This document shows, one piece after another, positions 1-64,000 of a stretch of DNA of 64,000 bases. The stretch lies in NCBI GenBank assembly GCA_016748015.1, contig JAAOMT010000258.1, positions 436,173 to 500,172 of the forward strand, written 5' to 3'. The notes under the pieces are model-generated. The model was not told the origin of the DNA and searched no databases. It worked only from the letters and a program-made list of their open reading frames with translations. Numbering within the stretch: position 1 is the stretch's first letter; the number at the start of each line of letters is the position of its first letter. The position numbers were made by a program, and so were the translations under genes. Source of the stretch: Geosiphon pyriformis uo1. Its lineage: Eukaryota > Fungi > Glomeromycota.

Positions 1-2200
1 TCAGTTTTTAATTAGTTTACATGTATATTTCACTCTATTCTAAATGGTAATTTTGTTAAAAAAAAGATGTTTACATTTAATATTGTATATATAAATAAAG
101 TACATATAATGTATATTATTATAAAATTATTTGTTTTAGTTTAAAAAATGTATATTTGTATATTTATTAATAATTTAGTTAAAAATATTGGTTTATTAAA
201 TGTTGTAAATAGTATTTTGGCCTATTTTTAAACTTAAATTTGAATATAAAGTAAAAATTTATGGTTTATTGTTATTTATATTGGGTAAATTGCAAACTAT
301 AACTTTAATATTCAAGTATATATTAGTTTTAAGCAAAAAATTGTTAAATTAATTATTATAAAATGTTTATTAAGCTAAGTTGTAATTAACTATATTTAAT
401 TTTTGTAACTATTATTAAATAAAACATTATCATATAAGCAATATTTTTTTTTTAAAAAAAGTTTTTGTTATATAATTTAAGATTAAACAAATTTTTATTT
501 TTAATTAATATCAACGAAAATTTTTTTAATAATTAATAATAAAATATATTTAGTAATACTTAATATTTGTCAAATTAAATAGAAAATTAAACTTAATATT
601 AAAATGATTAATTTTTTATTAATATAAAATATTAATTAATATTGTATTATCTTGGTTTAATATTCTAATTTTTTCATAATTTTTGAATTTATAGTAGAAT
701 TACAATTAGTTTGTATATATATATAATAAAATTATTACATAAAAAATAATTTATAACAGTAAAAATAACTTTATTTTGCAAATTATTGTGTATTTAATAT
801 AATAAAATAGAATTTGGCTGTTTATTAAAAATTATTAAATAAGTATTTTTTATTTTTGCAATTAATAATTGATGTAAGTTTAAGTATTTTTTTGGTATTT
901 TTAGTTTTTAAAATATGTGTCAACAATAATAATTTATATATAATAATAGTATTAAAATTAATTAATTTTGTTTATATATTAGTAATAAAATATAATAAAT
1001 ATATTTGCTTAAAATTACATTGGAAAAAAAACAGTTTACTACATAATAATAGTTTTGTATTTGTTAATATTTATAATATTTTTATTATTTTGTTAATTAA
1101 TATAATACAAATGCTTAATATTATGAAAAATTATATTGTAAGTTTTGGTTTAAAAGTGTATTATTTGTTCTTTTTTTGATTGAAAAAAAATATTTTATTT
1201 AAAATAATTACATAATTAATCTAAGTAACTAGTTATATGTAGTAAATATATAGTTTATATTTAATTTAAAATATTTGATTGTTATATTATTCAGATAGTA
1301 ATTAGATCTTGTTTATTAACTAAATAAAAAATTAAATTAAATTTTCAATTAATATATAAAATATTTTGCTATATAAATAAGAATTCGATTGGTTTAAGAA
1401 TATATATAATAAAGATATTTTACAATAGGCTATTTATTATTAAAAGAAAAAAAATTTAAAATCATAATTACTCAAATACTTTGTATATAAAATGTGAAAA
1501 GATAAAAAATTTTAACTATGTATTTAAGTATAATTACAATCATAAATTCAGAATTAAAATTCTAAATAATTGTTGAAAAATGTAATATGCTATGAATATT
1601 AAGTTGGTTTAATTGATAATTGTTTGAAACATTAACATAATAAAAGACTGTGAATTCAAAAATGATTTTGTAAATTGCTTGGTCTTATATAAAACATTGG
1701 CTAAAGAAATAATGCCAATAAGCTGGTTTGCTAAAACAAAATATTTGTTTGCTAACATTAAGATCATGAAGTATTAAGTGGTAAATTTGATAAAAAATGT
1801 GTTTACTGAACACAAAAACAAAGTCTGATTGTCTATAATGACTCTAAGATCTTTTTTTAAAGTCTGAGAATTAATTAAAGATTTGGATCAAGAACTAATG
1901 GTTAAATAAAATGATAAAACCCAAGTAAATTTGGAATTTTGGTCTTTTGTACAATTACAAGTATATAATTGAAATAAGATTTATCCATAAGTTAATCAAT
2001 ACAAATATAGTAAATACATAGAATATAATAAGGTTTAGATTTATTCATAGTATGTGACAAGTTGGTTTTGTGTAGTCTAGATTGGCCAGAGTGGTTAATT
2101 GTATTTAGATAATGCGTAATTTACATGTACTTTGAGCATATAAATGTTTCATCTTGGTAAATTGTGATTGGGCTACCCTTGCATAAGCATAAAAAAAAAT
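1..2200 (+). mobile_element. Heavily decayed LINE 3' relic (ORF2 C-terminus, 3' tail, A-tail)
   Basis: Manual translation gives NSIGLRIYIIKIFYNRLFIIKRKKI*NHNYSNTLYIKCEKIKNFNYVF (~1380-1530), matching SSAGLHLYIIKAVHKRLPVTVKKNLYDKLYPSVLYFYCGEVVFPDHVF of the 14648 LINE ORF. LYKTLAKEIMPISWFAKTKYLF (~1685) matches LYSVMCKEFVLKDWCAEAVGIF (~54020). The shared 3' motif is at ~2070-2180, followed by an A-run. The 5' boundary is uncertain. Confidence 0.75.
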
Positions 2201-7603: not shown

Positions 7604-8659
7604 TTAAACGGGCAAAGTTTCTATGGGTCTACTAGGGAGAAGTAGGAATTGTTTTTGCAATTCATCAAGCAAATTGCCTGAATGTGATGCGAGTTGCAGA
7701 ATTTGGTTTCCCAGAGAACGATTGTTATAAATGTATTCTTCTAAATTCTGGGATTCCGAGTAACTGATTGGAATAGCGTAATTTGGATATTCTTCCCATA
7801 TTGGATGATAATTAAGGTGTGCTGCCTCTGAGGGAAAGAGAATTGAGTTTCCCGGCAAATTTTGTTGAGCTAGTAGTTGATTCTCCACGAGTTCAAACGA
7901 TGAAAAATTTTGTATAGCAAGCATTGGAGTTGTAAGCATCAACGCCTCACATTCAATCGGAAACTCGTTGGACGCAACGGAAGGATAGTTATGTTGACTT
8001 GAATTACAATGATTAGATGGTGAGGAAATTGGATAAATGTGATTACTTGATATCGGAACACGAAGATTACTTTTTTGAAAAAGAGTTTCTTCATTTGTAG
8101 TCGACACTTCCGTCTTACAATATTTATCAGAAAGAGGACCAAATGAATCTTCAGCACATATATCAACCGTTTGCTGTGATAAATCATCGAGAGACACAGG
8201 AGCTTGAAACGCAGCACTCCAAACGTGATGAAATTGATCATATGAAGCAAAGTTTGAATCTTTCTTGATCGCTGACTTTCGATTCTTCAATTTGTCATGC
8301 TCCTCGGCTTGTAGTTGTAAAGTCTCAACGCAAATTTTTTCAAACTGACGTCTAGCCTCCAACATTAGGTCGTAGTATTTTGCTTTAACATAAGCTGGCT
8401 CTTTGATCCAAAGTTTTCCTGCTAGTCGAGAAAGTTCACGCATTTTGTACCTCTCCTTTAAGGTTGGACTAAATTCACGATATACTGCCATTCGGTAGGC
8501 AAAAAAAGCATTTGGAGTTTTTGAAAGTTTTTTGTTCTTTTGAAGTTTCTTTAAGGCATTTGACATTAAATCTTGTACCGTAAGTTTTGGCGGAAAAGAA
8601 GGTTTAATAATATCTAAGGGTAACTGAGTTACAGATAATTTCTCAAAAATTGGTTGCAT
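7604..8659 (-). CDS. MATA-type HMG-box transcription factor (intronless, 351 aa)
   Basis: HMG box KTPNAFFAYRMAVYREF...MRELSRLAGKLWIKEPAYVKAKYYDLMLEARRQF fits the (RP)PNAF..YR / S...G..W..E...K..Y pattern; low-complexity C-terminus. Confidence 0.9.
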   Translation of the reverse strand: MQPIFEKLSVTQLPLDIIKPSFPPKLTVQDLMSNALKKLQKNKKLSKTPNAFFAYRMAVYREFSPTLKERYKMRELSRLAGKLWIKEPAYVKAKYYDLMLEARRQFEKICVETLQLQAEEHDKLKNRKSAIKKDSNFASYDQFHHVWSAAFQAPVSLDDLSQQTVDICAEDSFGPLSDKYCKTEVSTTNEETLFQKSNLRVPISSNHIYPISSPSNHCNSSQHNYPSVASNEFPIECEALMLTTPMLAIQNFSSFELVENQLLAQQNLPGNSILFPSEAAHLNYHPIWEEYPNYAIPISYSESQNLEEYIYNNRSLGNQILQLASHSGNLLDELQKQFLLLPSRPIETLPV

Positions 8660-8860
8660 TCCTAAATTATAAAAAAAATGAATTGTGATATCTTAAATTT
8701 TCAAAATATGGCTTGTCGGTATAAACAAAGAATTTTTTTGAACTTTCAAGTTGATGTCGCTTATATAGCCAAAGTTAAAATCGTTACAAGTGCAAACTTG
8801 ATATGTTTTTCAAGGAGGAGGAGGAGGAGATGAAGAAGAAGAAGAAGAAGAAGAATAATA

Positions 8861-12064: not shown

Positions 12065-12780
12065 CCATATTCTTCGGATTCAATACACAGAAAAATCTGA
12101 CGATAGAACGTCTACAATCAAATTCAATCCCAATCATACTTAGTGGTATATAATCTATGTTCGTACTACAGAAGAATCTTTCGATATTTAAATATTTTGT
12201 ACAAATTCCCAACTGCCTAAATGAGGTTGGTTTGAGTGTAATACTGCAAGATGACATTCAAACAAAAGTTGAATGAAAAATGCTCTCAACATACTCAAAA
12301 GCTACAATCTCGTCCACGTTTTAGTTTTCTTTTTCAACAAAATAAGCATCTTCATTGTTCCTTTAGCTTCATTATTTCGAGTTGACCAATATTACTCATT
12401 ATAAACGGTAGATTCTTTTCTCACTATTGGAATTAATATAGAATCTCTTGCAGCAACTGATAAATAGTTTAATGCAAATTTGTTTATCTCAAAAACTTAC
12501 CAGCGCCCAACCAAGTTGTTTTGACCAAACAATACTAATTACATTTTTCACTATTTATATTCGTATTCTATCTGTAACCATCCTTTTTCTTTGGGTTTAT
12601 AACTACCAATACGATTGATAACGTGAATATACTTGGCAAGCTCTAGGTTCTTTACAAGTAAAAGTAATTTATTCGATAAAATATATTTATTGAACTTAAT
12701 TTTTCGGCTGCCATAGAGTTCTCTTACAAATAAATATTTACTATTATAAACAGTAATCAAAATATATATTTCTATATCAT
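12065..12780 (-). pseudogene. Deleted pseudogene paralogue of the lipase-3-like gene at 49445-50851
   Basis: Collinear DNA similarity: 12368 ttcattatttcgagttgaccaatattactcatta vs 50236 ttcattatttcgatttgaccagtattgctcatta; 12197 ttgtacaaattcccaactgcctaaat vs 49856 ttgtacaaattcgaaattgcctaaat; LELAKYIHV vs IELVKYIHI. It has stops and internal deletions but retains a GTAAGT donor at ~12500. Confidence 0.85.
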
Positions 12781-37206: not shown

Positions 37207-38163
37207 CTATACAGTAATTTTCTGACACTTTGCTTTACAGCACACAAACCAACTAGCTCTAACCCCTTGACATTGAGAGAATATAAGTTCACGCATTTCA
37301 GGGAACAGGCCAAAATAATCTGGTGCCACAGTTCTAGGAAACACGCTATTAGTGAATAAAATTGTTTGAAGAGAGTTTGAATGTTTTCTTAATGCCATCA
37401 AAATTTTCGTCATCTCTTCTCCACCAGAGCATTCGACCCAAAAATCCCTCAAATCTCTCTGGGATTTTATGAGCGTTATTAAAGAGTCGATATTTACAGC
37501 CGTCCTACCGGCTATTAATTGGGGCTTCGTTTTAAAAAGTAGAGAAATGGACTTAATGTTCATCCTTCTTTTCAGAATTATTTGAATTATGTCGTCCAGT
37601 GTATTACCAAAAATTGCAGCATTTTTCGTCAAAAGAGTCTCGAAACCAAGCCTCTGAATGTTATTTGACCTCGTCAGAAACATTTTCAAAAATATTTTAA
37701 ATGTCTGTATTTCTTCTCGGCCGGTAGATACACCTCGCCTGTGGGATTTTTCAAAGGACCACTGAATAAAATTAAACAGAGAAGTATCATTCAACGTTTC
37801 TAAATATCGTTCATAATGAAATGTGGGCCGACGTTGAAATGGGTTCGTTGAATTTCGCAAGATAGGGTGTTCTTGAAAAGGTTTTAAAAGTTTATACACG
37901 GCTAATTTTTCTTGAGAATCTAAGCAAGCTGTATAGGTTCTTAATAGATTTTCTTTTCGATGGGCAGCGGATATTGTTGGTCGATTTGTCATTTCAGAAT
38001 TGTTGGCGATTAATGCTAATGGATTTCGCCATAAGATTGGAGTTGCAGTTCGACACCAAAGTCTGTTTACCATTAAACAGTTGTACAAGGAAGCTCGGTC
38101 ATTCGCCAAAGGTTCTAGAAAATGAGATAACAAGTCGGCAGGAAGTGATTTGAAAAAAGTCAT
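37207..38163 (-). CDS. F-box-like protein with probable LRR-like C-terminus (intronless)
   Basis: N-terminal LPADLLSHFLEPLANDRASLYNCLMVNRLWCRTATPILWRNP fits the Glomeromycotina F-box pattern. The first ATG is at 38163 (the track's start is upstream of it). Confidence 0.88.
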   Translation of the reverse strand: MTFFKSLPADLLSHFLEPLANDRASLYNCLMVNRLWCRTATPILWRNPLALIANNSEMTNRPTISAAHRKENLLRTYTACLDSQEKLAVYKLLKPFQEHPILRNSTNPFQRRPTFHYERYLETLNDTSLFNFIQWSFEKSHRRGVSTGREEIQTFKIFLKMFLTRSNNIQRLGFETLLTKNAAIFGNTLDDIIQIILKRRMNIKSISLLFKTKPQLIAGRTAVNIDSLITLIKSQRDLRDFWVECSGGEEMTKILMALRKHSNSLQTILFTNSVFPRTVAPDYFGLFPEMRELIFSQCQGVRASWFVCCKAKCQKITV

Positions 38164-38519
38164 AGAGATTTTGTCGGTTGATATGTTCAAAATTTCGACA
38201 GGAAACCAAAAAAGATAAAAAGTGAATAGTCAAGTGTTTAGTAAATTGTAACGAACCTCGATGTTTGATCTTACCCACTTTAATCCTGTGAGATCCAATA
38301 GCAGCTGATATTGACCTCAATTTAAATATCGTAGATCTCTTCGGCTCGACCGTTATTGAGTGGATAATGCGAGGCGCGCTATTATTTGTTTTTTTTTTTC
38401 GATGGCGAGAGCCCTATCTAGTATATTTTTAGATAGTCGAACAGATAAACGACCCCTTTTTTTGGAAAATATATTAGCGATTAATGTGGTGCAATCAATC
38501 ATTTTTAATCAACATGCTG

Positions 38520-49444: not shown

Positions 49445-50851
49445 CTAAGAAATACTCCAAGGGGGTGGGACATCGAGACATTTTCCCATAATATATCCAA
49501 AATAAGGGCCATTATGTGATAAAAAGTTTTTGTTTTTAAATTGGGCATTACATTCCTACAGCGTTTAAAAATTGTGATTTGAGTTATTTTTTGCAGCCTC
49601 CAGAATAAAATTAATCATAAACTACCAACCTGGCTTTCTGACTCAACGTAAATATTTTCATGGGATATTATTGGCCCAGTGCACATGAAGGCATCATCTT
49701 CAGAACATTCACAATCAGATCCAATCCAAATTTCTAAGCTAGTGTGCTTGTAAAAACTATGAAACGTATTCAGTGGAAGCTTTGGTACATAATCATCTAT
49801 GTTCGTAATTCGTTCTATAAAAACTTCTTGAAACATGTCCAGCGTGGCAATATATTGTACAAATTCGAAATTGCCTAAATACGGTTGACCAAAAGTATAC
49901 ACTGCCCGAAGTATATTCAGGTGAGTCATTTCTAGCATTTGTAACACTGCATAGACTAAAAGAAATAATAAGCATCATTTCAAGTTTCTTTTTGTTGAGA
50001 ATTTTACTGTTCGATTAAGTTTATATGATAACAAAGATGATATTCAAATAAAAGTTGATAACTTACTACCACCAGAACCATGCCCAACAGCGACAATTTC
50101 GTTGACATTGCGGTTTTCCATTTTCGAAAAAATAAGTTTCTTCATTGCTCCTTTGGTTTTCTTAAAATTTTCGTAAAAAACTTTATCAACTTTAGCTCCA
50201 ACAGCATTTTGATTTGTTGTAATGTAGTTGACAAGTTCATTATTTCGATTTGACCAGTATTGCTCATTACCAACGCTAGAATCTCCTCTCACCATTAGAA
50301 TTAATTTAGAATCCCTTATTTCAACTGCGGCTAAGAGATTATGAATAGTTTAAATATTTGATATCTTTTTCCTCAAATAAATTACATTTTACTTGTTCTT
50401 TATTTCAAAAATTTACCATAAATCCCTGCCCCAACCATATTTTCAACTTTATTGAGACAATAAGATCTCATTGCCCACCATGCATACTCGTCAAAGTGGT
50501 TACGTTTTACATCAGCCTGTAACAATCTTTTTTTTTCACCATCATACAAATTGGATGACCTTTTAATTTTTTTGATTTCATGACTACGAGTGTCATTGTG
50601 AATATGGATATATTTGACGAGTTCTATTTCCTTGATTTTTTTTTCATATAAAGTTAATTTGTTGGATAAAAAGCCTTCCATTAATTTCGTGAAAAAATTA
50701 AAAAAAAAATTAATTTTTCAGGAACTAGAGTTTTAACTTGAAATTATAGTTCAAAGATTTTACCATATGAAATAAATATACCACAAATTAAAAAAAAGAT
50801 GGTAAATAAAGATTTTAAAAATAAAATTCTGTTGCTGCTTTTGATTACCAT
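49445..50851 (-). CDS. Secreted lipase class 3-fold protein (5 exons) with nucleophile Ser replaced by Gly
   Basis: Signal-peptide-like exon 50764-50851 (MVIKSSNRILFLKSLFTIFFLICGIFISY). Motifs VAVGHGSGGIYAVL, VYTFGQPYLGN, RITNIDDYVPKLP, YKHTSLEIWI, SHNGPYFG. Stop TAG at 49445. Confidence 0.88.
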
Positions 50852-53974: not shown

Positions 53975-54530
53975 CCTTTGTCTTGAGGACTCTTAATCTC
54001 TACTGGTCAGATGTTGGCTTGTATTCAGTCATGTGTAAAGAATTTGTGCTTAAGGATTGGTGTGCAGAGGCTGTTGGTATTTTTGAGGATGTTAAGTGTG
54101 CTTCTGGTGTGATTGTTGACTTTGTAAGGTATTTGGTTAAGTTATATTGATCTAAGATGTGGTTGGCTAGATCTAAGTTTAGGGTGGACATGGAGAAAAC
54201 AGGTTTGGTTGGTGATGATGGTTTGGTGTTAAGACTGTCGCATTGCATGACTTCTATGCTTTCGGATAAAGTGATCAGATTGTTTGGCATTATGGAGTTT
54301 TTTGCTGTAAGTTTTGGCTGTTGCAGGCTTTGTCCTTTTTTTTCCAGTTTGGATGATAATTTGTGTGTTAGTTTAAGTGTATAGTGTTGCCTTGTCTGGT
54401 TCAAGTGGCTAGCTACATGTAAAAAGTGCATGAATCATGTTTAGTTTGAGCCACTTAGTTTGGTTCTATATACTAGATAGTGGTTGGGCTTCACTCATTA
54501 AATAAATAAATAAAAATAAAATAAAAAAAA
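53975..54530 (+). mobile_element. LINE 3' fragment with conserved tail and A-rich end
   Basis: ORFs 53956 and 54157 are homologous to 14648-15373 (LCKSFVLREW vs MCKEFVLKDW; GLVCDD vs GLVGDD). The tail ends ttgggcttcactcattaaataaataaa. Confidence 0.88.
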
Positions 54531-56099
54531 TAAAAACAAATAAAATTTTTATTATCAAAATAAGATCAAATTATAAAAAATAATAAATAAAAATATTTTT
54601 TTTTATTTTTTTTGTTATTATTAATTTGATTTTATTTATATTAATATAATAAAACAATTGTTTTTATTTATAAATAAATTATTTTTGTTTATTTAAATAA
54701 TAATTTATATAAATAAATACAAATAAATTTATTTTATGTTAAATTAAAATTCAAAAAATTATTAATTTATATTATTTTAAAAGTTTTTTTATTAAAAAAA
54801 CCAAATAATATTTTATAAAAATACTTTTTGTTAATTAATATAAATATTAAGTAGTTTTAGTATAATTGTTTTTAATTACAAATTAATAATTAAATTATTT
54901 TTGGTTATTATTATTTAAATAATTAAAATAATTAAATGAAAAAATTTTTTAAATTGTTAAAAATAATATTCTTAAAGTATTTTTTAAACTAAAATCTGTT
55001 TTTTATTAAAAATAAAATAATGACTTTTTTAATTTTTTTAATATTTATATTAATTTAATAATATAAATATTAATTATAATACTTGATTTATTTTAATTAT
55101 AAACAAATAATTGCTTTTTATTTTAAATAATATATATATTATTATTTTTTATTAAATTTAATATATAGTTCAACTATTATTTAATATAATATATTAAATT
55201 AAATAACTTAAATTAAATACAATTTATATATTTTTATTTATAATAATAACTAATATATTATTATTTTTAATTAAATTACTTAATTATTCAACAATTTTAT
55301 TTATATTAATCTTAATACTATTAGACTAATATTTTTAAAAAATAATTAATTTAGTATAAAAATTAATATTAAATAAATTAATATTACATTTATCTATTTA
55401 TATTATCAAAATTATATTCGGTTTTAATTATTATTATATTTAAGAAAAATTAATTTATAATTTTATTAACAACAAATATTTTATTTTAAACAATAAAAAC
55501 CAAATTTTAATTTTTATATACAAGATAAAAAGAGTATTTAAAAAAATAATAATTAAAATAATCAAAAAACTGATTAGTTTAATAATAAATTTTATCAAAA
55601 CAAACAAATTTGTAATTTAAAAATTCAAAAAATTTAATCTAAACTTAATAACAAAATCAATAGTAAAAGCAGTTAAAAAGACAATAAAAAAAACCAAAAA
55701 AACAGAAATTTTAATATAAAACTTTTTATTAATAAAAGATAACACAAAAAATCTAAAACCAATAACAAATTTAACAAACAGCTTAAAAAAAAATAATAAT
55801 ATTATACAATCAGCTAATAAATAATCTAAACTTTAATATTTATAGCAATAATAATATTTAAATATTTTCTATTAGATATAATATTTGCATAAAGTATTAA
55901 TTTTTACAATAACCAAATTCAAAGATTTATAAAATTTAAATATTATAACAGCAAAATATTAATAACAATAAGAATTAAAAAATAAAAAAATATGGTTATT
56001 AACCTAAAAAATCAAATTACTAATTTTAAAAACTGTATAATTAAAAGAAAAATTAATTAATTTGGTCTTAAAAGTATTTTTTAAAATAATAAAATAATT

Positions 56100-58197
56100 A
56101 AAAAACTTTTTTCTCTCTTACCTCCAAAAAACCCCAGCAAGTACTTTTTCTGAGAAAAGAAGTTTTTTGTTTTTATTTTGTTAATAATATATCAACATTT
56201 TTTTAACTGATAATCCTTTTGTCATGGATTTGGAGACTGCCTTTAGTAGCAGCATGTCTAGTAAGAAGGCTACTAAAAGCGTGTTTCACAGTCCTGCTGG
56301 TGGTTTTTTTTCACAAAGAAAGAAAGCTTTTCTTGAAAATGTTAAACATTCTAGTGATGAAAAGGATATTTCTTTGAAGTCTGGTTTTGGTACTAGTGTA
56401 TATTCTGATGTAGAGAGCCTATCTGGTGATGAAGATGTTAGTATATCTGGTGATTTTGATGGTTCTCTCTTGGATTTGGCTGTTAACACTCCCAAGGCTA
56501 AATGGGTGAATACTGGTGCGAATTTCGGTTCTCTTATTAGTTCTCCTGACTTTGAAATGGATGAAAAGGTGAAGCCCCTCCCACCCCCCCTTAAGAAAAA
56601 AGTTCTTTTAAATAAGATTTGGATTGATCCTAAGATTATCAAAACTTCTATAGAGGTGTCGGTCAAGAAATTATTTGCTTTAGACATCAATTTTTTGGCT
56701 GTGGAAGAGAAATTGACTATGACAAAGACTCAGTTTGTCAAAAAAATTTTTTCAAAAATCAATGGTTTTGGGGAGGCTACTACTCTCTCAAAATTTGAAG
56801 GAATCATCAGATCAACATTTACTTGAAAGGAAAGCATGAAAAAGGCTGTTTTATTGGCTGGTGAAAATGGGATCACTGTAAACAGCAATCTTAAGAAACA
56901 AAAATTTTGTTCAGATCGGACTGTAGTAATTAAAGAAATTCTCATGGACATGCTTAAAGATATGATTGTCACCACAGTCGCCAAGTTTGGTGAGATTAGG
57001 TCGATCAAAATTCAACTGATTGGCATGTAACAGAAAGCAGTGGTAAAATTTGCCAATTTAGATCAGGCTGATTAGTTGGCTCTTAGATGGTCATTCTTAA
57101 TCGGAAAAGATTCTGTGTGCATGACTAAAACCATAAAAAATTGTGATATCTGGGCATCAAAGAATTAATTTAGGGCACTTTTGTTTATGTTGCCAATAGG
57201 GACAACAGCACATAATCTTGGCTCACTTTTGGAAGCTATTAGTGGAAAAACTTGCATCATCAACCAGTCATTGGAAATGGGTAATAGATTTTGCTGTGCG
57301 GTGGTTGGTTTTGGCTTTGACGCAGATTTGGAATCTGCTTTTTGTACTGAGCCTATTCTTGGTGATATTTGACTCTTATGGGCTAGATTGGATTTGGTTA
57401 GGTGTGAAAAATGTGGGCATCTTGGTCATTCAGCTCTTGAGTGTGATACATTGAATGTGTCATCTCCTGAACTCTTGCTTTCATATAAAAAACCTTTCTT
57501 TGGTGCAAATTGTCTTCAGTTGGCTCAATTATATGCCAAAAAAAATGTTCCTGTTTTCCAGCCAGCAGCTTTTAGTGGCAAATCTTGGGCTCAAATAGTT
57601 TCTCTTGCTTTTTCTGCTGGCCATTAGTATTTTGTTTCTAGTTCCAGTTCTGGTTTTCTCTTCTCGGATAATTCTGATTTGAGTGTTAACAGACTTATCC
57701 CTCCTGTTAACATTTCTTTTTTAAGTTCTCATTTGGCAGTGTTGAAGCACTCTATGGAGCTTTTAGCAGATCAGATTTCCAGCTTGGTGTGTAAACTTGA
57801 CAATTTGAACTTAGTGCCTTTAGACTCTTCTCCATCGTCTAGTATTGTGGCTCCTTCTTCAGTTTCAGGTTTGGATTTTGGTACAGGTATGGTTTTGAAT
57901 GATCCTGTAGAGATCCCTTCATCTTCTTCTAATAGCTTGAATTTGGGTCTTAATAGTTCAAAGGTTTTGACTTCCAAGGTGGGCTTTTTGGAATCCAAGT
58001 TGGTAGTTCTGGAGGTCTCTATTGGTTTGGTTTTGGCAAAGTTAGATCTGTTGTATGCTGGTTTAGGGTCTCATATTCAGTTTTCTTCCCAATGAGCGAT
58101 TTGATCTGGAAGTTTGCTATATACAACGTTCATGGCATCAATGTGCTGGCTAAGCAAAAAGATGTGGTGTGTTGGCATATGGAATCTGAGAATATGG
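56100..58197 (+). mobile_element. LINE 5' portion: degenerate ORF1 (56224-58095, CCHC knuckle) and start of ORF2 (APE endonuclease), cut by a Gypsy LTR
   Basis: Zinc knuckle CEKCGHLGHSALEC and multiple in-frame stops. ORF2 starts at 58092 with MSDLIWKFAIYNVHGIN (APE N-V-x-G motif) and overlaps the ORF1 stop (ATGA). Confidence 0.88.
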
Positions 58198-59176
58198 TGT
58201 TACTGAAAGTTTTTGGGTCTTTTTTCTTAAATGTTGTTAATGCTTGTTTGCTGTGAATTCACGTTTTCTAGATGTAGTTGAACCTCCAATAACTGAATTT
58301 TATCTTCAAATTATCTCCTATAATTTGAACTGCTGAGCTTATAAGTAGAATGGCCAATTCCATGCCAGTTACTTTGTATAGTTATGTTGTAGTAAATGTT
58401 AACTCTTTCTCAGGAATTGCTTGTCTGGAAGCTCACTAAAAATGTGTAGTTACTTTGCTGTGAAAGTCAACTCTTCTACAGGAATCTCATCTGTAGGCTA
58501 CTCTAATGATTGTAATAAGAAAATAAAAAAAAAATAAAAGAAATGTAAAAGAAATAGAATTCTGTCAAGGGAAACGTTTTCTATCCAGGCCTGGAGTCAT
58601 TAACAGTTTATTGAAATTGGTAGCTAATCAATTTCAAAATGTTAATTGGGTTTTAGGGATTTTCCAAGTACAATAATTAAAGAATTTGGTTTTTCAAATT
58701 ATTTGATATTTATTTCTTTTTGTGTATATAGAAATGGTTTTAAGAGATAAATCTAAAGTAAGATACATTTTCTTGAAGAGAAAAGCCCTTCTTTTATACA
58801 ACTTGTCATAACACTATTCTATGAACTTGAACTTTGCTATTTTCTACAATTTCGCTGAACTAAAGATACATTTCGGCGAACTACAAGTTATTTCTGTGAA
58901 CTATTAGATATTTTGGTGAACTATCAATTATTTCAGCAAATTTTTACAAATTTTGGCAAACTTTTGAATGTTACATAGTTTGGAGTATTGCATGATTGAT
59001 CATTGCAATTAGGTTACATTTGTGTTGTGTACAAATTGGGTTATTAATTAATTGATAATTTCGGACATTTTTGCTAATATAATAAGTGATAATTTGAAAT
59101 AATAATATGCTAATTAATAATAGGAATTATAAGATAATTTCATGCTAAATAATATCTCTAATTTTGTCTGGTAACA
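58198..59176 (-). repeat. 3' LTR of Gypsy copy A (979 bp)
   Basis: TGTTAC...GTAACA termini; adjacent PPT (minus strand TGAAGAGAAGGTTA); near-identical to 60215-61193. Confidence 0.93.
58850..58961 (-). promoter_or_regulatory. Six-copy 20-bp-period motif array (consensus TTTCGGCGAAC) in LTR U3, upstream of TATAAAA (58792-58798); also in LTR B at 60864-60975
   Basis: Units start at 58850, 58871, 58891, 58911, 58931, 58951 and at 60864, 60885, 60905, 60925, 60945, 60965. The regulatory role is inferred from position. Confidence 0.7.
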
Positions 59177-59864
59177 TAACCTTCTCTTCAAGACTGAGCT
59201 CCATCGAAGTCCAAGTACTGTCTGTCATTTTCAGATAATAATCCAAAATTATTGAAGAAATTTGGTCTGAAAATTGTTAAAATTTCAGTTCTGTGAGCTT
59301 TCCAATGTATTGAATCTTCAAAGATTGAAAAATTGAGTTTTGTAGTATATTTTCACAGGTGTAGAATAGGTCATAAAGTCTAAAAGCAGCTCTGAGCCTG
59401 TAGTAACTGTTTGTTGATCCAGTTGTTGTCTTGAATTCATTGTGAAGTTGTTTCTGAATAGCTTTTTTTGTGAGATTTGCTGTTGTAAGTTCCAGTTTCT
59501 ATTCGTAAAGTGTTTTTCCAATGTGAAAATATTTATAGATTAGAGAATATTCAGTGTTTTCCTCATTGAGACACAGTTGAAATCTTTGTTGAATTGTAGC
59601 ATTTAGTGGAATACTAATCAGAGTGAGCATTAGGTTTTCTCTTAAAGCAAGCTTTAAAAGTTCTGGCAGGTGAATTCCAGAATAACTTCTTGTGTTCTTC
59701 TTATATGGGTGATATTTTCATAAATTTGGGGCTAAATTTGTAACTACTTCTGTTTGGGTATAATTAATGTGGTTTCTAGTAACAGTAATGGATAATTCGG
59801 GTATTGTTTTTAAAGCTAACATTAGTTTTTGAAATAATTGTTGAATGTTTTGAGAAATAGTCAT
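59145..59864 (-). pseudogene. Accessory ORF3 of the Gypsy family (~239 aa, three premature stops, no frameshift)
   Basis: One frame from ATG 59864 to TAG 59145. Stops TGA 59718, TAG 59499 and TAA 59277 each fit a single C>T change, and copy B has CAA at the third. The same frame is present in copy B (61162-61505, gapped). Confidence 0.82.
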
Positions 59865-60214
59865 TATAAGAGATTTGAAATAAAAGAAAATTATTTTTGG
59901 TGTATGGGTTTTTATGTTATTTTTGTTTTGATTGTTTTTAAATTATAAGGGAATAACTAGTAAAATTAATTTAAGTGTTCAGGTTGGAAGGTTGTTCAAT
60001 AACAACTATTGGTTCTAAGTTTCAGAGAATATCTTCGGGATTGACTAAAGGGGAATGTATACCAATTTGTGGAATTAATGATTTAGGCTTGTTTTTGGAA
60101 TGATAGTGTTTCAGACAATCTCCATGTGCAACTTTTGCTAGAATTTTGTCATTGAGTCTTAGCTTGTATGATCCGTTGCCTAAGACTTTATGGATAAAAA
60201 ATGGTCCATCCCAT

Positions 60215-61193
60215 TGTTACTGGAGGTTTTTGGTCTCTTTTCTGTAATGTTGTTGATACTTATTTGCTGTGAATTCACGTTTTCTGGATGTGGTTGAACC
60301 TCCAGTAACTGAATTTATCTTCAAATTATCTCCTGTAATTTGAACTTGCTGGGCTTATGAGTGGAATGGCCAATTCTATGCCAGTTGCTTTATGTAGTTA
60401 CGTTGTAGTAAACGTCAACTCTTTCCCAGGAATTGCTTGTCTGGAAGCTCACTAAAAATGTGTAGTTACTTTGCTGTGAAAGTCAACTCTTCTACAGGAA
60501 ACTTGTCTGTAGGCTACCCTAATGATTGTAATCAGAAAAGAAAGAAAAATAAAAAAAGTGTAAAAGAAATAGGATCTTATTAAGGGAACGTTTTCTATCC
60601 AGGCCTGAAGTCACTAACAGTTTACTGAAATTGGTAGCTAATCAATTTCGAAATGTTAGTTGGGTTTTGGGGATTTTCTAAGTACAATAATTAAAGAATT
60701 TGGTTTTTCGAATTATTTGATATTTATTTCTTTTTGTATGTATAAGAATGGTTTTAAGAAATAAATCTAAAGTAAGATACATTTTCTCGAAGAGAGAAGC
60801 TCTTTTTTTATACAACTTGTCATAACACTATTCTATGAACTTGAACTTTGCTATTTTCTAAAATTTTACTGAACTAAAGATACATTTTGGCAAACTATAA
60901 GTTATTTCGGCGAACTATTAGATATTTCGGTGAACTATCAATTATTTTGGCGAATTTCTACAAATTTCGGCGAACTTTTTGAATGTTACATAGTTTGGGG
61001 TATTGCATAATTGATCATCGCAATTAGGTTACATTGGTGTTGTGTACAATTTGGGTTATTAATTAAATGATAATTTCGGACATTTTTGCTAATATAATAA
61101 GTGATCATTTAAAACAATAATATATGCTAATTAATGATAGGAATTATAAGATAATTTCATGCTAAATAATATCTCTAATTTTGTCTGGTAACA
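60215..61193 (-). repeat. 3' LTR of Gypsy copy B (979 bp)
   Basis: TGTTAC...GTAACA termini; adjacent PPT TGAGGAGGAGGTTA. Confidence 0.93.
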
Positions 61194-61299
61194 TAACCTC
61201 CTCCTCAAGACTGAGCTCCATCGAAATCCAAGTACTGTCTGTTTTTTCCAGATAATAATCCAAAATTATTGAAGAAATTTGGTCTGAAAATTGTTGAAA

Positions 61300-61413
61300 N
61301 NNNNNNNNNNNNNNNNNNNNNNNNNNNNNNNNNNNNNNNNNNNNNNNNNNNNNNNNNNNNNNNNNNNNNNNNNNNNNNNNNNNNNNNNNNNNNNNNNNNN
61401 NNNNNNNNNNNNN
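61300..61413. other. Assembly gap inside ORF3 of copy B (114 N; the equivalent segment in copy A is 490 nt)
   Basis: N run; the flanks align to 59282 and 59773. Confidence 0.95.
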
Positions 61414-64000
61414 TTTCCAGTAACAGTAATAGATAATTCAGATATTGTTTTTAAAGCTAACATTAGTTTTTGGGATAATTGTTGAATGTTTTGAGGAATA
61501 GTCATTATAAGCAATTGAAAAAATAAAAATTATTTTTGGTGTATGGGTTTTTATGTTATTTTTGTTTTTGTTTTTGTGAGATTGTTTCTAAATTATAAGA
61601 GAATGACTAGTAAAATTAAATTAAGTGTTCAGGTTGGAAGGTTGTTCAATGACAACTATTGGTTCTAAGTTTCAGGGAATATCTTTGGGACTGACCAAAG
61701 GAGAATGTGTACCAATTTGTGGAATTAATGGTTCAGGATTGTTTCTGGAATAATAGTGTTTCAAATGATTTCCATGTGCAACTTTTGCTAGGATTTTGTC
61801 ATCAAGTCTTAGCTTGTATGATCCATTGCCTAGAACTTCATGGATAAAGAATGGTCCATCCCATTTATTTTCAAATTTTCTACTCCATTGTTTTTCAGTT
61901 TTAGTTCTGTGTAAGAGAACTTTGTTTCTAATTTTGAATTTATTGGTGACTGAAGGCAATTTGTCATCATGCCGTTCTTTTTGTTGAACTTGGGAGTGTT
62001 CAATATGGATGGCTGCTATTCATTGTTTTCCTTCTAATGTACTAAGCAGAGTATAGGCTCTTCGCTGAAGTGTTTCTTGGAAATTGTTTTTATCGATCAG
62101 TTGTGCTGGGTATGTTTCCACTGTGAAACTAATTGGTAATGTTGCCATCCTTCCATAAGTTAAATCAAATGGTGTGTTTTTCGTAGTATCTTGTTTTAAT
62201 GTCCTTTATGCTAGTAACACTGATGGAATAAAGAGATCCCATTCTTGCTTAAAATTGGTTGAGACTTTGGCTAATGACTCACACAATGTTCTGTTAAAAT
62301 GTTTCACAAGTCCGTTTGTTTGTGGATGGTAGGGCGAAGACAGAAGTCTTTTGACATTGAATTGTTCACAAATTTCTTGTATCAGGTTGTTCACAAAGTG
62401 TGTTTCCTGATCGGATAAAAGTTCAATTGGACATCCATGTTTACAAATGATGTCTTTGTAGATAAAATTTGCTACTGATTTTGCATCTGCTCATTGAATG
62501 GCTCTGGCTTTGGGCCATTTAGTAAGATAGTCTACAGCTACTGCAATATAATGGTTTCCTTGAGTGGTAATAGATAGTGGTCCGACTAAATCAATACCAA
62601 CTCTGTCAAAAGGCTGTCCAACTTTGATTGAATTTAAAGGTTCTGTAGGGCGAGTTCCTCTTCTTCTTTGACAACTATCACAAGATTCAACATATTCGTG
62701 AATGTCTTTTCTCATTCGAGGCCAAAAGTAGTATTCTAGTGTTCTTTGGGTGATGTTATCTTTTCCGAAGTGTGCTGATAAAGAATCCGAGTGCATGTTG
62801 TATAAAATGGTCTCTTTTTCTTGTTCTTGTATTAATCTGAGTGGTTTGGTTGGGTTTTTGAAATTTTGATGATAGATAATGTTGTTGTGTAGAAAATATT
62901 GTTTGGCTTGTTGTTGTAACCAATGTTTTTTGTCTGGGGACCAATCTGTTGGGATTGTTAATGTCTCCAAATATTGTTTGAGATTGTTGTAGTTTTCGGG
63001 GTTTATTGTTTGTTGTTTTAATGCTGTTAATTCAATTGGGTGTTGGTTTTGTTTCTAATCTTGCCTCATCCTTGAGAGACAATCAACATTGGTGTGGAGT
63101 TTTCCTGGTTTGTGGTGTACAATGTATTGGTAATTAGCTAAAAATCCTGTCCATCGGGTTTGTTTTGTGTTCAGCTGGGTGTTTTTGTTTTAAAGCCATT
63201 TAAGTCCAATATTATCAGTGATAATATCAAATTTTTTGGGTCTGAGGTAAAGGTTGAAGTGATATAGGGCCCAGATTACTGCTGCAGTTTCTAATTCTGT
63301 TGCGGAGTAGTTCTTTTCGGCTGGCTTTAATGTTCTACTAGCATAAGCAATTACTCACTCATTTCTATTGTCATCTAACTGTGATAGGATGGCACCAAAG
63401 GCAGTATAAGAAGCATCAGTTGCTAATCGGAATTGGTTGCTGAAGTCTGGGTAGGCAAGGATTGGGGCTGTTGTGAGTTTTTTCTTGAGTATCTTGAAGG
63501 CATTTTGGTGTTTTTTTGTCTATTTGTATTCGACATTTTTCGTAGTGAGCTGGTTGAAGGGTTTTGCAATTTCTGAGAATCCTTTGATGAATTTTCAGTA
63601 ATAGGATGCTAATCCAATAAATCCTCTTAATTCTGTGGTATTTCGTGGAGTCTTGAAGTTTTTGACAGTACTGATTTTTCCAGGGTCTGGTTTAATTCTA
63701 TCTTTGCTAACAATGTGACCAAGAAAAGCTAAACTTGTTTTTCCGAAGTAGCATTTTCAATGTTCAATTTCAATTCTGCTTTCCATAATCATTGAAAAAC
63801 TTTTTGCAGGTGAATTAAATATAGCTCGAAAGATGGTGAATAAACATCAGTGTCATTAAGATAAACTACTACTGATTTCCAAAGGAGACCTTTGTAAACA
63901 ACATCCATAAGTCTTTGGAATGTTGCTGGTGCATTGCATAATCCGAAAGACATTACATTGAACTTGTAATTTCCTCCTTGAGTGGTAAATGCTGTTTTGG

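Follow-up and report, generated by a model that had tools for sequence, protein, structure and literature searches.

A decayed third gene between integrase and the 3' LTR in a Ty3/Gypsy family of Geosiphon pyriformis

What lies between the integrase and the 3' LTR of a decayed Ty3/Gypsy element is the question raised by a 64,000-nucleotide stretch of the Geosiphon pyriformis uo1 genome (contig JAAOMT010000258.1 of assembly GCA_016748015.1, positions 436,173 to 500,172; here called the window), in which a first-pass annotation made from the sequence alone had marked a 240-codon sense frame with no frameshift and only three stops. Our translation of this minus-strand frame, ORF3 (59864->59145, 240 codons including the terminator), is identical to the earlier one letter for letter. 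The stops fall at codon 49 (TGA, 59720-59718), codon 122 (TAG, 59501-59499) and codon 196 (TAA, 59279-59277). Three or fewer stops occurred in 0 of 20000 base shuffles of the frame (shuffle mean 17.8), and the other five reading frames across ORF3 of this copy contain 13-23 stops each. Among 120 listed relatives, those aligned at codon 49 carry Q (60), R (42) or L (1), those aligned at codon 122 carry Q (56), R (42) or W (21), and those aligned at codon 196 carry Q (101). Because relatives have sense residues at all three positions, the stops reflect decay of this one copy, in a pattern compatible with C>T changes, as the first-pass annotation had proposed. Elements of this Ty3/Gypsy family have a genuine third gene, and the frame is a dead copy of it.

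Table 1. Features of the two Gypsy copies, in positions of the window
Feature	Coordinates	Strand	Remarks
3' LTR, copy A	58198..59176	minus	979 bp, TGTTAC...GTAACA; last 10 ORF3 codons and stop inside
PPT, copy A	59177..59189	minus	in ORF3 frame, reads EEKV
ORF3, copy A	59145..59864	minus	239 codons and stop, 0 frameshifts, three decay stops
Helical core, predicted HTH-like	59220..59552	minus	about codons 105-215; Y.Y..IG..L ... K ... (K)TN...R..A..RLY..F
Basic linker, predicted disordered	59685..59723	minus	conserved (P)Y; pLDDT <50 at P0148 residues 40-51
Spacer, probable ancestral integrase stop to ORF3 ATG, copy A	59865..59970	minus	106 nt, G-poor
Integrase C-terminal remnant, copy A	59971..60214	minus	truncated at 60214 by copy B LTR; probable decay stop 60024-60022
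3' LTR, copy B	60215..61193	minus	979 bp
PPT, copy B	61194-61206	minus	in ORF3 frame, EEEV
ORF3, copy B	61162..61505	minus	both ends open; middle missing in assembly gap 61300-61413
pol remnant, copy B (RT end, RNase H, integrase)	61621..64000	minus	domain matches and translation

The window contains two related Gypsy copies, A and B (Table 1), in which we found the Ty3/Gypsy pol order RT-RNase H-integrase and a 3' LTR bounded by TG...CA with a PPT before it. The pol remnant of copy B is interrupted by 12 stops across 728 codons (61675-63858) and matches Integrase_H2C2 (E 9.6e-19) and SH3_Tf2-1 (E 1.3e-5) in Pfam; in the integrase tail Pfam matched SH3_Tf2-1 but no chromodomain. The two LTRs are 92% identical, 68 of their 79 differences being transitions, and that of copy A has a TATA-like box at position 58798. 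Both ends of ORF3 are kept in copy B, as had been noticed earlier: they are open on either side of a 114-N gap (61505-61414 and 61299-61162), and the copy B PPT is read as LEEEV. At 60214/60215 the copy B LTR adjoins the cut integrase of copy A. Copy B is probably nested in copy A, a family inserted into itself, with the 5' end of B beyond the window. Copy A for its part sits inside a decayed LINE-like element (56188-58197, plus strand; junction 58197/58198), made up of ORF1-like pieces followed by an ORF2 start, MSDLIWKFAIYNVHGIN at 58092, which we take to be the endonuclease motif; the LINE remainder is expected beyond the window. A further ~1.6 kb of the window (54500-56150) is almost pure A+T and is flanked by two decayed mobile elements.

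Relatives of ORF3 are abundant in the same fungus. Using the ORF3 protein with X-bridged stops as query, we recovered 201 relatives from 419 candidates; the 120 listed are without exception hypothetical proteins of G. pyriformis at 60-89% identity, and 29 of these 120 are intact and full length (235-245 aa). They form at least two close subfamilies, with identities of about 85% and 64%. Geosiphon copies also dominated the best 120 of the 276 matches obtained from 7022 candidates in a second homologue search. The homologue searches covered limited ranges of protein length, from which fused or split forms could escape. An integrase piece is joined to ORF3 on its upstream side in 12 of 169 protein models and on its downstream side in 1 of 169. 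At least 120 G. pyriformis 'hypothetical proteins' are thus one retrotransposon gene or its chimeras, which matters for annotation. In three gene models (P0120, P0127, P0132) ORF3 is joined to dUTPase-like sequence, recognised as PF00692 in P0120 and P0132 and by eye in P0127. The sequences suggest that neighbouring Geosiphon Gypsy elements may carry a dUTPase upstream of RT.

Outside the close subfamilies the family thins out quickly. When 1.84 billion representatives were searched with a profile, 35 matched. The 8 of these that we identified comprise six Geosiphon models and two metagenomic proteins (P0146, P0148); no cellular homologue was seen, and each relative examined is a copy or chimera of the ORF3 element family. 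The metagenomic proteins match over their full length at 28-30% identity, while divergent Geosiphon paralogues (P0149-P0152) show 21-24%. By scanning metagenomes for the PPT/LTR junction motif we obtained five loci, L001-L005. L001, the sole non-Geosiphon ORF3 element read at the DNA level, runs in the order RT-RH, integrase, spacer (319 nt), ORF3 (230 codons, intact, encoding P0148), PPT and LTR; just as in the window, its ORF3 reads through the PPT into the LTR. Its pol and the Gag-Pol of L005 align over 670 aa (E 4e-80). L005 itself, an ordinary element, lacks ORF3, and L003 has no ORF before its PPT. The linkage of integrase, ORF3 and PPT that had been anticipated is thus borne out in both window copies, in L001 and in those 12 gene models of the 169 that have an integrase piece ahead of it, and the position and sense orientation of ORF3 are kept across copies and lineages. 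Neither a relative of ORF3 nor a match to the PPT motif was detected in viral contigs, and there was no match in genome contigs or, by tblastn, in phages.

Two of the metagenomic loci hold something shorter in the same place. L002 and L004 have ORFs of ~135 codons that end just before the PPT, in L004 directly after the integrase. These do not match the ORF3 family HMM (A2), and the L002 ORF as query gave 1 match among 12 candidates in a third search. Against the ORF3 core profile they score 17.0, a value reached by 0 of 60 shuffles, and hhalign of A2 against A3, which bears on this kinship, gave E 0.087. Such scores suggest that the short ORFs may be distant kin of ORF3. L002 also has a 199-codon antisense ORF upstream of its pre-PPT ORF, and L003 an ORF at 1644-2030 (+), both with coiled-coil and basic RRT(R)KR(K/N) sequence and no similarity to pol; they are possibly gag-like genes, or the mark of non-autonomous elements.

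ORF3 is under purifying selection between subfamilies. Comparison of copy A with a contig of the second subfamily, outside the PPT/LTR overlap, gave a dN/dS of 0.16 over 69 codons (p 1.2e-5), with 13, 4 and 24 differences at codon positions 1, 2 and 3, and so the frame behaved in the dN/dS comparison as the first-pass annotation had expected of a gene; this value comes from a single contig, possibly from the window's own sample, uses 42 of 48 differences and was obtained by simple counting with transitions and transversions treated alike. The other two sense frames over the same codons gave dN/dS of 0.69 and 1.26; the mirror antisense frame gave 0.22, but contains 7-9 stops. Against L001 the dN/dS of ORF3 is about 0.44, with dS saturated. 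Amino-acid identity between the window and L001 is 32% for ORF3, with synonymous sites saturated, and 62% for integrase, and therefore ORF3 is selected as a protein, yet evolves faster than pol.

The 3' end of the gene is shared with elements of the LTR itself. The LTR starts within the M230 codon at 59176, and the ORF3 stop lies 32 nt inside it in copy A, in agreement with the ~30 nt first given for copy B. Five lineages read EL(S/N)LEEEx-ML across the PPT. Past the PPT-encoded ML the LTR-encoded tails are 4, 8, 13 or 14 residues long and mutually unlike, and paralogues P0151 and P0152 end before the PPT, in another frame. Lentiviral nef and other U3-overlapping retroviral genes likewise run through the PPT and end in U3, and the layout of the frame had been described as nef-like. 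That description goes too far: of its 240 codons a mere 10 or so fall within the LTR (U3), the tail varies in sequence and is of low confidence in structure prediction, the overlap is missing in P0151 and P0152, and ORF3 has no sequence or fold relation to nef. We read the overlap as coding sequence packed compactly over a cis-element, in preference to a functional U3 gene. A motif just upstream of the PPT, GGAGCTCA (59202-59195 in copy A, 61219-61212 in copy B), is a conserved cis-element. It is found ~10-12 nt before the PPT in very different fungal Gypsy elements, L001-L005 among them and hence also in L005 with its lack of ORF3; one ORF3 clade translates it as ELS, others as GAQ.

At the 5' end, ORF3 had been placed ~160 nt after the integrase stop. 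A TGA does occur there in both copies (60024-60022 in copy A, 160 nt before the ORF3 ATG), but since gene models P0048 and P0154 continue through its position (EDIPQNLEP), this TGA is itself probably a decay stop. The ancestral integrase stop was probably the TAA at 59973-59971, 17 codons downstream and 106 nt before the ATG. The corresponding spacers measure 106 nt in copy A, 115 nt in copy B and 319 nt in L001, and because none of these is a multiple of three we rejected translational read-through from integrase into ORF3. A splice acceptor proposed upstream of ORF3 is indeed kept in both copies, as TTTTACTAG at 59957 and 61607; in copy A its ACTAG (AG 59958-59957) lies 14 nt past the probable ancestral integrase stop. 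Between integrase stop and ATG, ACTAG is the sole YAG in copy A and in L001, and copy B has two. It is a plausible candidate for the 3' splice site of an ORF3 RNA. Similarity between spacers is not significant, that between window and L001 included (121/1000 and 809/1000 shuffles score as high), and the L001 spacer has an ATG upstream of ORF3, past its acceptor.

The encoded protein is predicted to be largely helical. AlphaFold2 run on P0148 with 19 sequences gave a mean pLDDT of 75.8 (about 85-94 in the core), with an N-terminal helix and hairpin (57-69), a poorly predicted linker (Table 1), a helical core at ~80-200 and a long C-terminal helix (185-220) followed by a low-confidence tail. Positions conserved across six lineages (Y102, Y104, I107-G108, L111, K131, T144-N145, A152, R155-L156-Y157 and F160 in P0148 numbering) centre on two predicted helices with a GKTN turn between them. 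Core identity is 23-40% among the six lineages and 74% between the two close subfamilies. We take the basic linker to be a candidate nuclear localisation signal; P0146, P0148 and P0068 as whole proteins are not basic (pI 5.4-5.9). Neither a hydrophobic segment of transmembrane level nor a hydrophobic signal peptide was seen in the hydropathy profiles of 8 of 8 ORF3 proteins (maximum 19-residue Kyte-Doolittle mean 0.71-1.33, and 1.29-1.33 for the window frame), and the earlier judgement that the product is not env-like holds. A first model had 31 close sequences as input and came out poorly (pLDDT 44.6); the folds it matched, with a best Z of 5.9, were set aside.

No convincing family or fold emerged from Pfam, PHROGs, NCBIfam, PDB sequence, Foldseek or VIA searches. 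The Foldseek comparison came out negative, with nothing in PDB or BFVD at E <= 0.001 for the P0148-type model (best PDB E 0.14, best BFVD E 0.039), and the VIA fold search gave no match (best Z 4.5). Weak matches pointed to FtsQ (12 of 19 members, E 6.7e-5) and to phrog_23683 (10 of 19); FtsQ, at E 0.27-0.5 in the PDB sequence search and absent from the listed fold matches, was discarded as chance. Three ParB-type DNA-binding domains stand in the top 30 of 48161 chains, the predicted core aligning with the HTH of ParB/Spo0J/KorB over 59-93 residues (1vz0, Z 4.2, rmsd 5.3, 93 aligned; 1r71, Z 3.4, rmsd 4.5, 89 aligned; 6s6h, Z 3.3, rmsd 3.0, 59 aligned), but these Z values are under the tool's meaningful level, unrelated helical bundles do equally well (best Z 4.4) and ORF3 has no ParB family match.

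The first-pass annotation had seen in the core a pattern like that of YhcG N-terminal/DUF1016 domains. The YhcG N-domain is described as helical, of ~200 aa and of a structure then unknown (PMC1189080). The helical part of the claim agrees with the predicted core, and a profile-profile alignment of ORF3 with YhcG N-domains falls in the register first suggested, Y..IG..(I/L)...G.(tN/gFs)...R.(L/F)Y..F; its score is low (15.3, E 0.11, equalled by 19 of 60 block shuffles, with both profiles shallow at 10 sequences each). Membership in DUF1016_N (PF17761) is another matter: this is the commonest weak Pfam match (3 of 31 copies, E 0.037-1), but the P0002 match reaches 14.1 bits (E 0.05) against a gathering cut-off of 32.8, and P0146, P0148 and P0001 do not match DUF1016_N in Pfam. 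YhcG-N is absent from the fold matches listed, Pfam found no PD-(D/E)XK nuclease domain, ORF3 ending ~25 residues past the core, and the context is a eukaryotic retroelement. ORF3 may work like a YhcG-N-type domain; it cannot be classed as one. It is a previously undescribed protein family with no clear fold match.

For its function we tentatively favour, at a probability of about 0.4, a soluble, predicted-helical nuclear protein of ~230 residues that is translated from a subgenomic RNA and controls expression of the element by binding to its DNA. ORF3 would be translated from its own ATG, and because an in-frame integrase stop and then a spacer of variable length precede this ATG, a subgenomic RNA would be needed as its message, most likely one spliced to the ACTAG acceptor. 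The basic linker may serve as nuclear signal, the core is predicted to form a helix-turn(GKTN)-helix with conserved K, R and Y, and the protein, presumably by binding DNA, would work in trans on the LTR, either activating it or countering its silencing. That the frame continues through the PPT would be a by-product of compact coding. Points in favour of a DNA binder are the ParB-type domains in the fold list, the rank of DUF1016_N among the weak Pfam matches and the lack of a hydrophobic segment. TE methylation and Gypsy small RNAs described in Rhizophagus (10.1101/2021.03.30.436303) offer a motive for an anti-silencing factor.

The small RNAs made by Rhizophagus Gypsy loci (10.1101/2021.03.30.436303), together with fast divergence under purifying selection, which fits host conflict, would also suit a counter-defence or export factor that binds RNA or protein and not DNA, such as an RNAi suppressor or a Rev-like protein. 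Influenza NS1 RNA-binding domains were among the tied matches of the low-confidence first model (Z 5.0-5.1), but they are absent from the best 50 matches of the better model and no RNA-binding family was matched in Pfam, and we consider this reading somewhat unlikely. Adjacency points elsewhere: in every context read ORF3 stands directly behind integrase, whose tail has SH3_Tf2-1 with no chromodomain match, and its basic linker would fit a cofactor of the pre-integration complex that binds integrase or cDNA and aids entry into the nucleus or the choice of target, standing in for the seemingly absent chromodomain, much as retroviral accessory proteins can supply nuclear import (according to PMC7264820). 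Such adjacency is also expected from genome layout alone, however, and ORF3 diverges far faster than the integrase it would partner, so that we hold a cofactor role to be unlikely.

The lack of any known fold or family, with a long C-terminal helix and a separate N-terminal helix-hairpin, is what one might see in a structural or host-beneficial passenger (a particle scaffold or a captured gene) with no regulatory role; given that the profile search saw no cellular homologue and that the relatives examined are element copies or chimeras, this seems decidedly unlikely. Highly improbable, and largely refuted, is a frame that codes for nothing and is open through DNA constraint or youth, or that is an env-like gene. 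The last ~15 codons do share their DNA with the GGAGCTC motif, the PPT and the end of the LTR, where conservation would be DNA-driven, but the low dN/dS was measured outside this overlap, homology extends over the full length at ~30% identity with synonymous sites saturated, and hydropathy of transmembrane level is missing. Returning to the regulatory reading, a wider version of it would make the Gypsy elements of the AM lineage 'complex' retrotransposons with an ancient HTH third gene related to YhcG-N/ParB-type domains, expressed from a spliced RNA and activating or unsilencing the LTR, with L002 and L004 as distant members; this could help to explain the 41% LTR cover in Geosiphon, and we offer it as a quite unlikely speculation. 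Were ORF3 a trans-acting regulator, these fungal elements would resemble complex retroviruses and would provide a small, soluble, testable protein for transposon expansion in fungal genomes defended by methylation and small RNAs. It is also a target for structure determination, because its fold has no clear match.

The captured ORF3s of bdelloid rotifers are enzymes. Bdelloid LTR retrotransposons resemble the present family in having a third ORF besides gag and pol, but theirs is described as captured and shared with other retroelement types (PMC5408684), whereas Geosiphon ORF3 has no recognisable catalytic family. Closer in layout are the sense aORF-3S between pol and 3' LTR, a known kind of gene represented by Athila and Bagy2 (PMC7264820), which share with ORF3 the orientation, the position and conservation across family copies. 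Bagy2 is reported to make a spliced subgenomic RNA (PMC7264820), and one would be expected for ORF3. The sense aORFs so described are env-like, some with transmembrane domains (PMC7264820), whereas ORF3 is predicted to be soluble, resembles no known family and overlaps the PPT. Extra non-env ORFs had been called unusual in fungal Ty3/Gypsy elements, which is too strong: brtn of Boty (Botrytis, Sclerotinia) is one, though antisense (PMC7264820), and maps of Gypsy elements from other fungi show an 'add. ORF' of unknown function (PMC2864245). We set ORF3 beside these two by their descriptions alone. The accessible text of PMC3248453 has nothing on extra ORFs. What is new here is the ORF3 protein family, of which we found no published description, while supplements and TE libraries (Repbase, Dfam, the PMC11952901 library) may already draw the ORF; extra ORFs in LTR elements, fungal ones included, were already known. 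For G. pyriformis, a genome cover by LTR elements of 41.2% is given (PMC11952901).

Nine records place YhcG homologues on plasmids of Mycetohabitans, which are endosymbionts of Rhizopus, and it is conceivable that such plasmids were a route of the YhcG domain into early-diverging fungi. Elsewhere in the window, a 362-codon open frame at 7607-8692 (minus strand) has a start that we take to be HMG-box-like, presumably of a family expanded in these fungi, and a 340-codon open frame at 37210-38229 (minus strand) shows by eye an F-box-like start followed by leucine-rich repeats. The segments 12368-12459 and 50236-50327 are paralogous (82% identity) and lie in lipase-like genes, with GHGSGG recognised by eye near 50047-50349.
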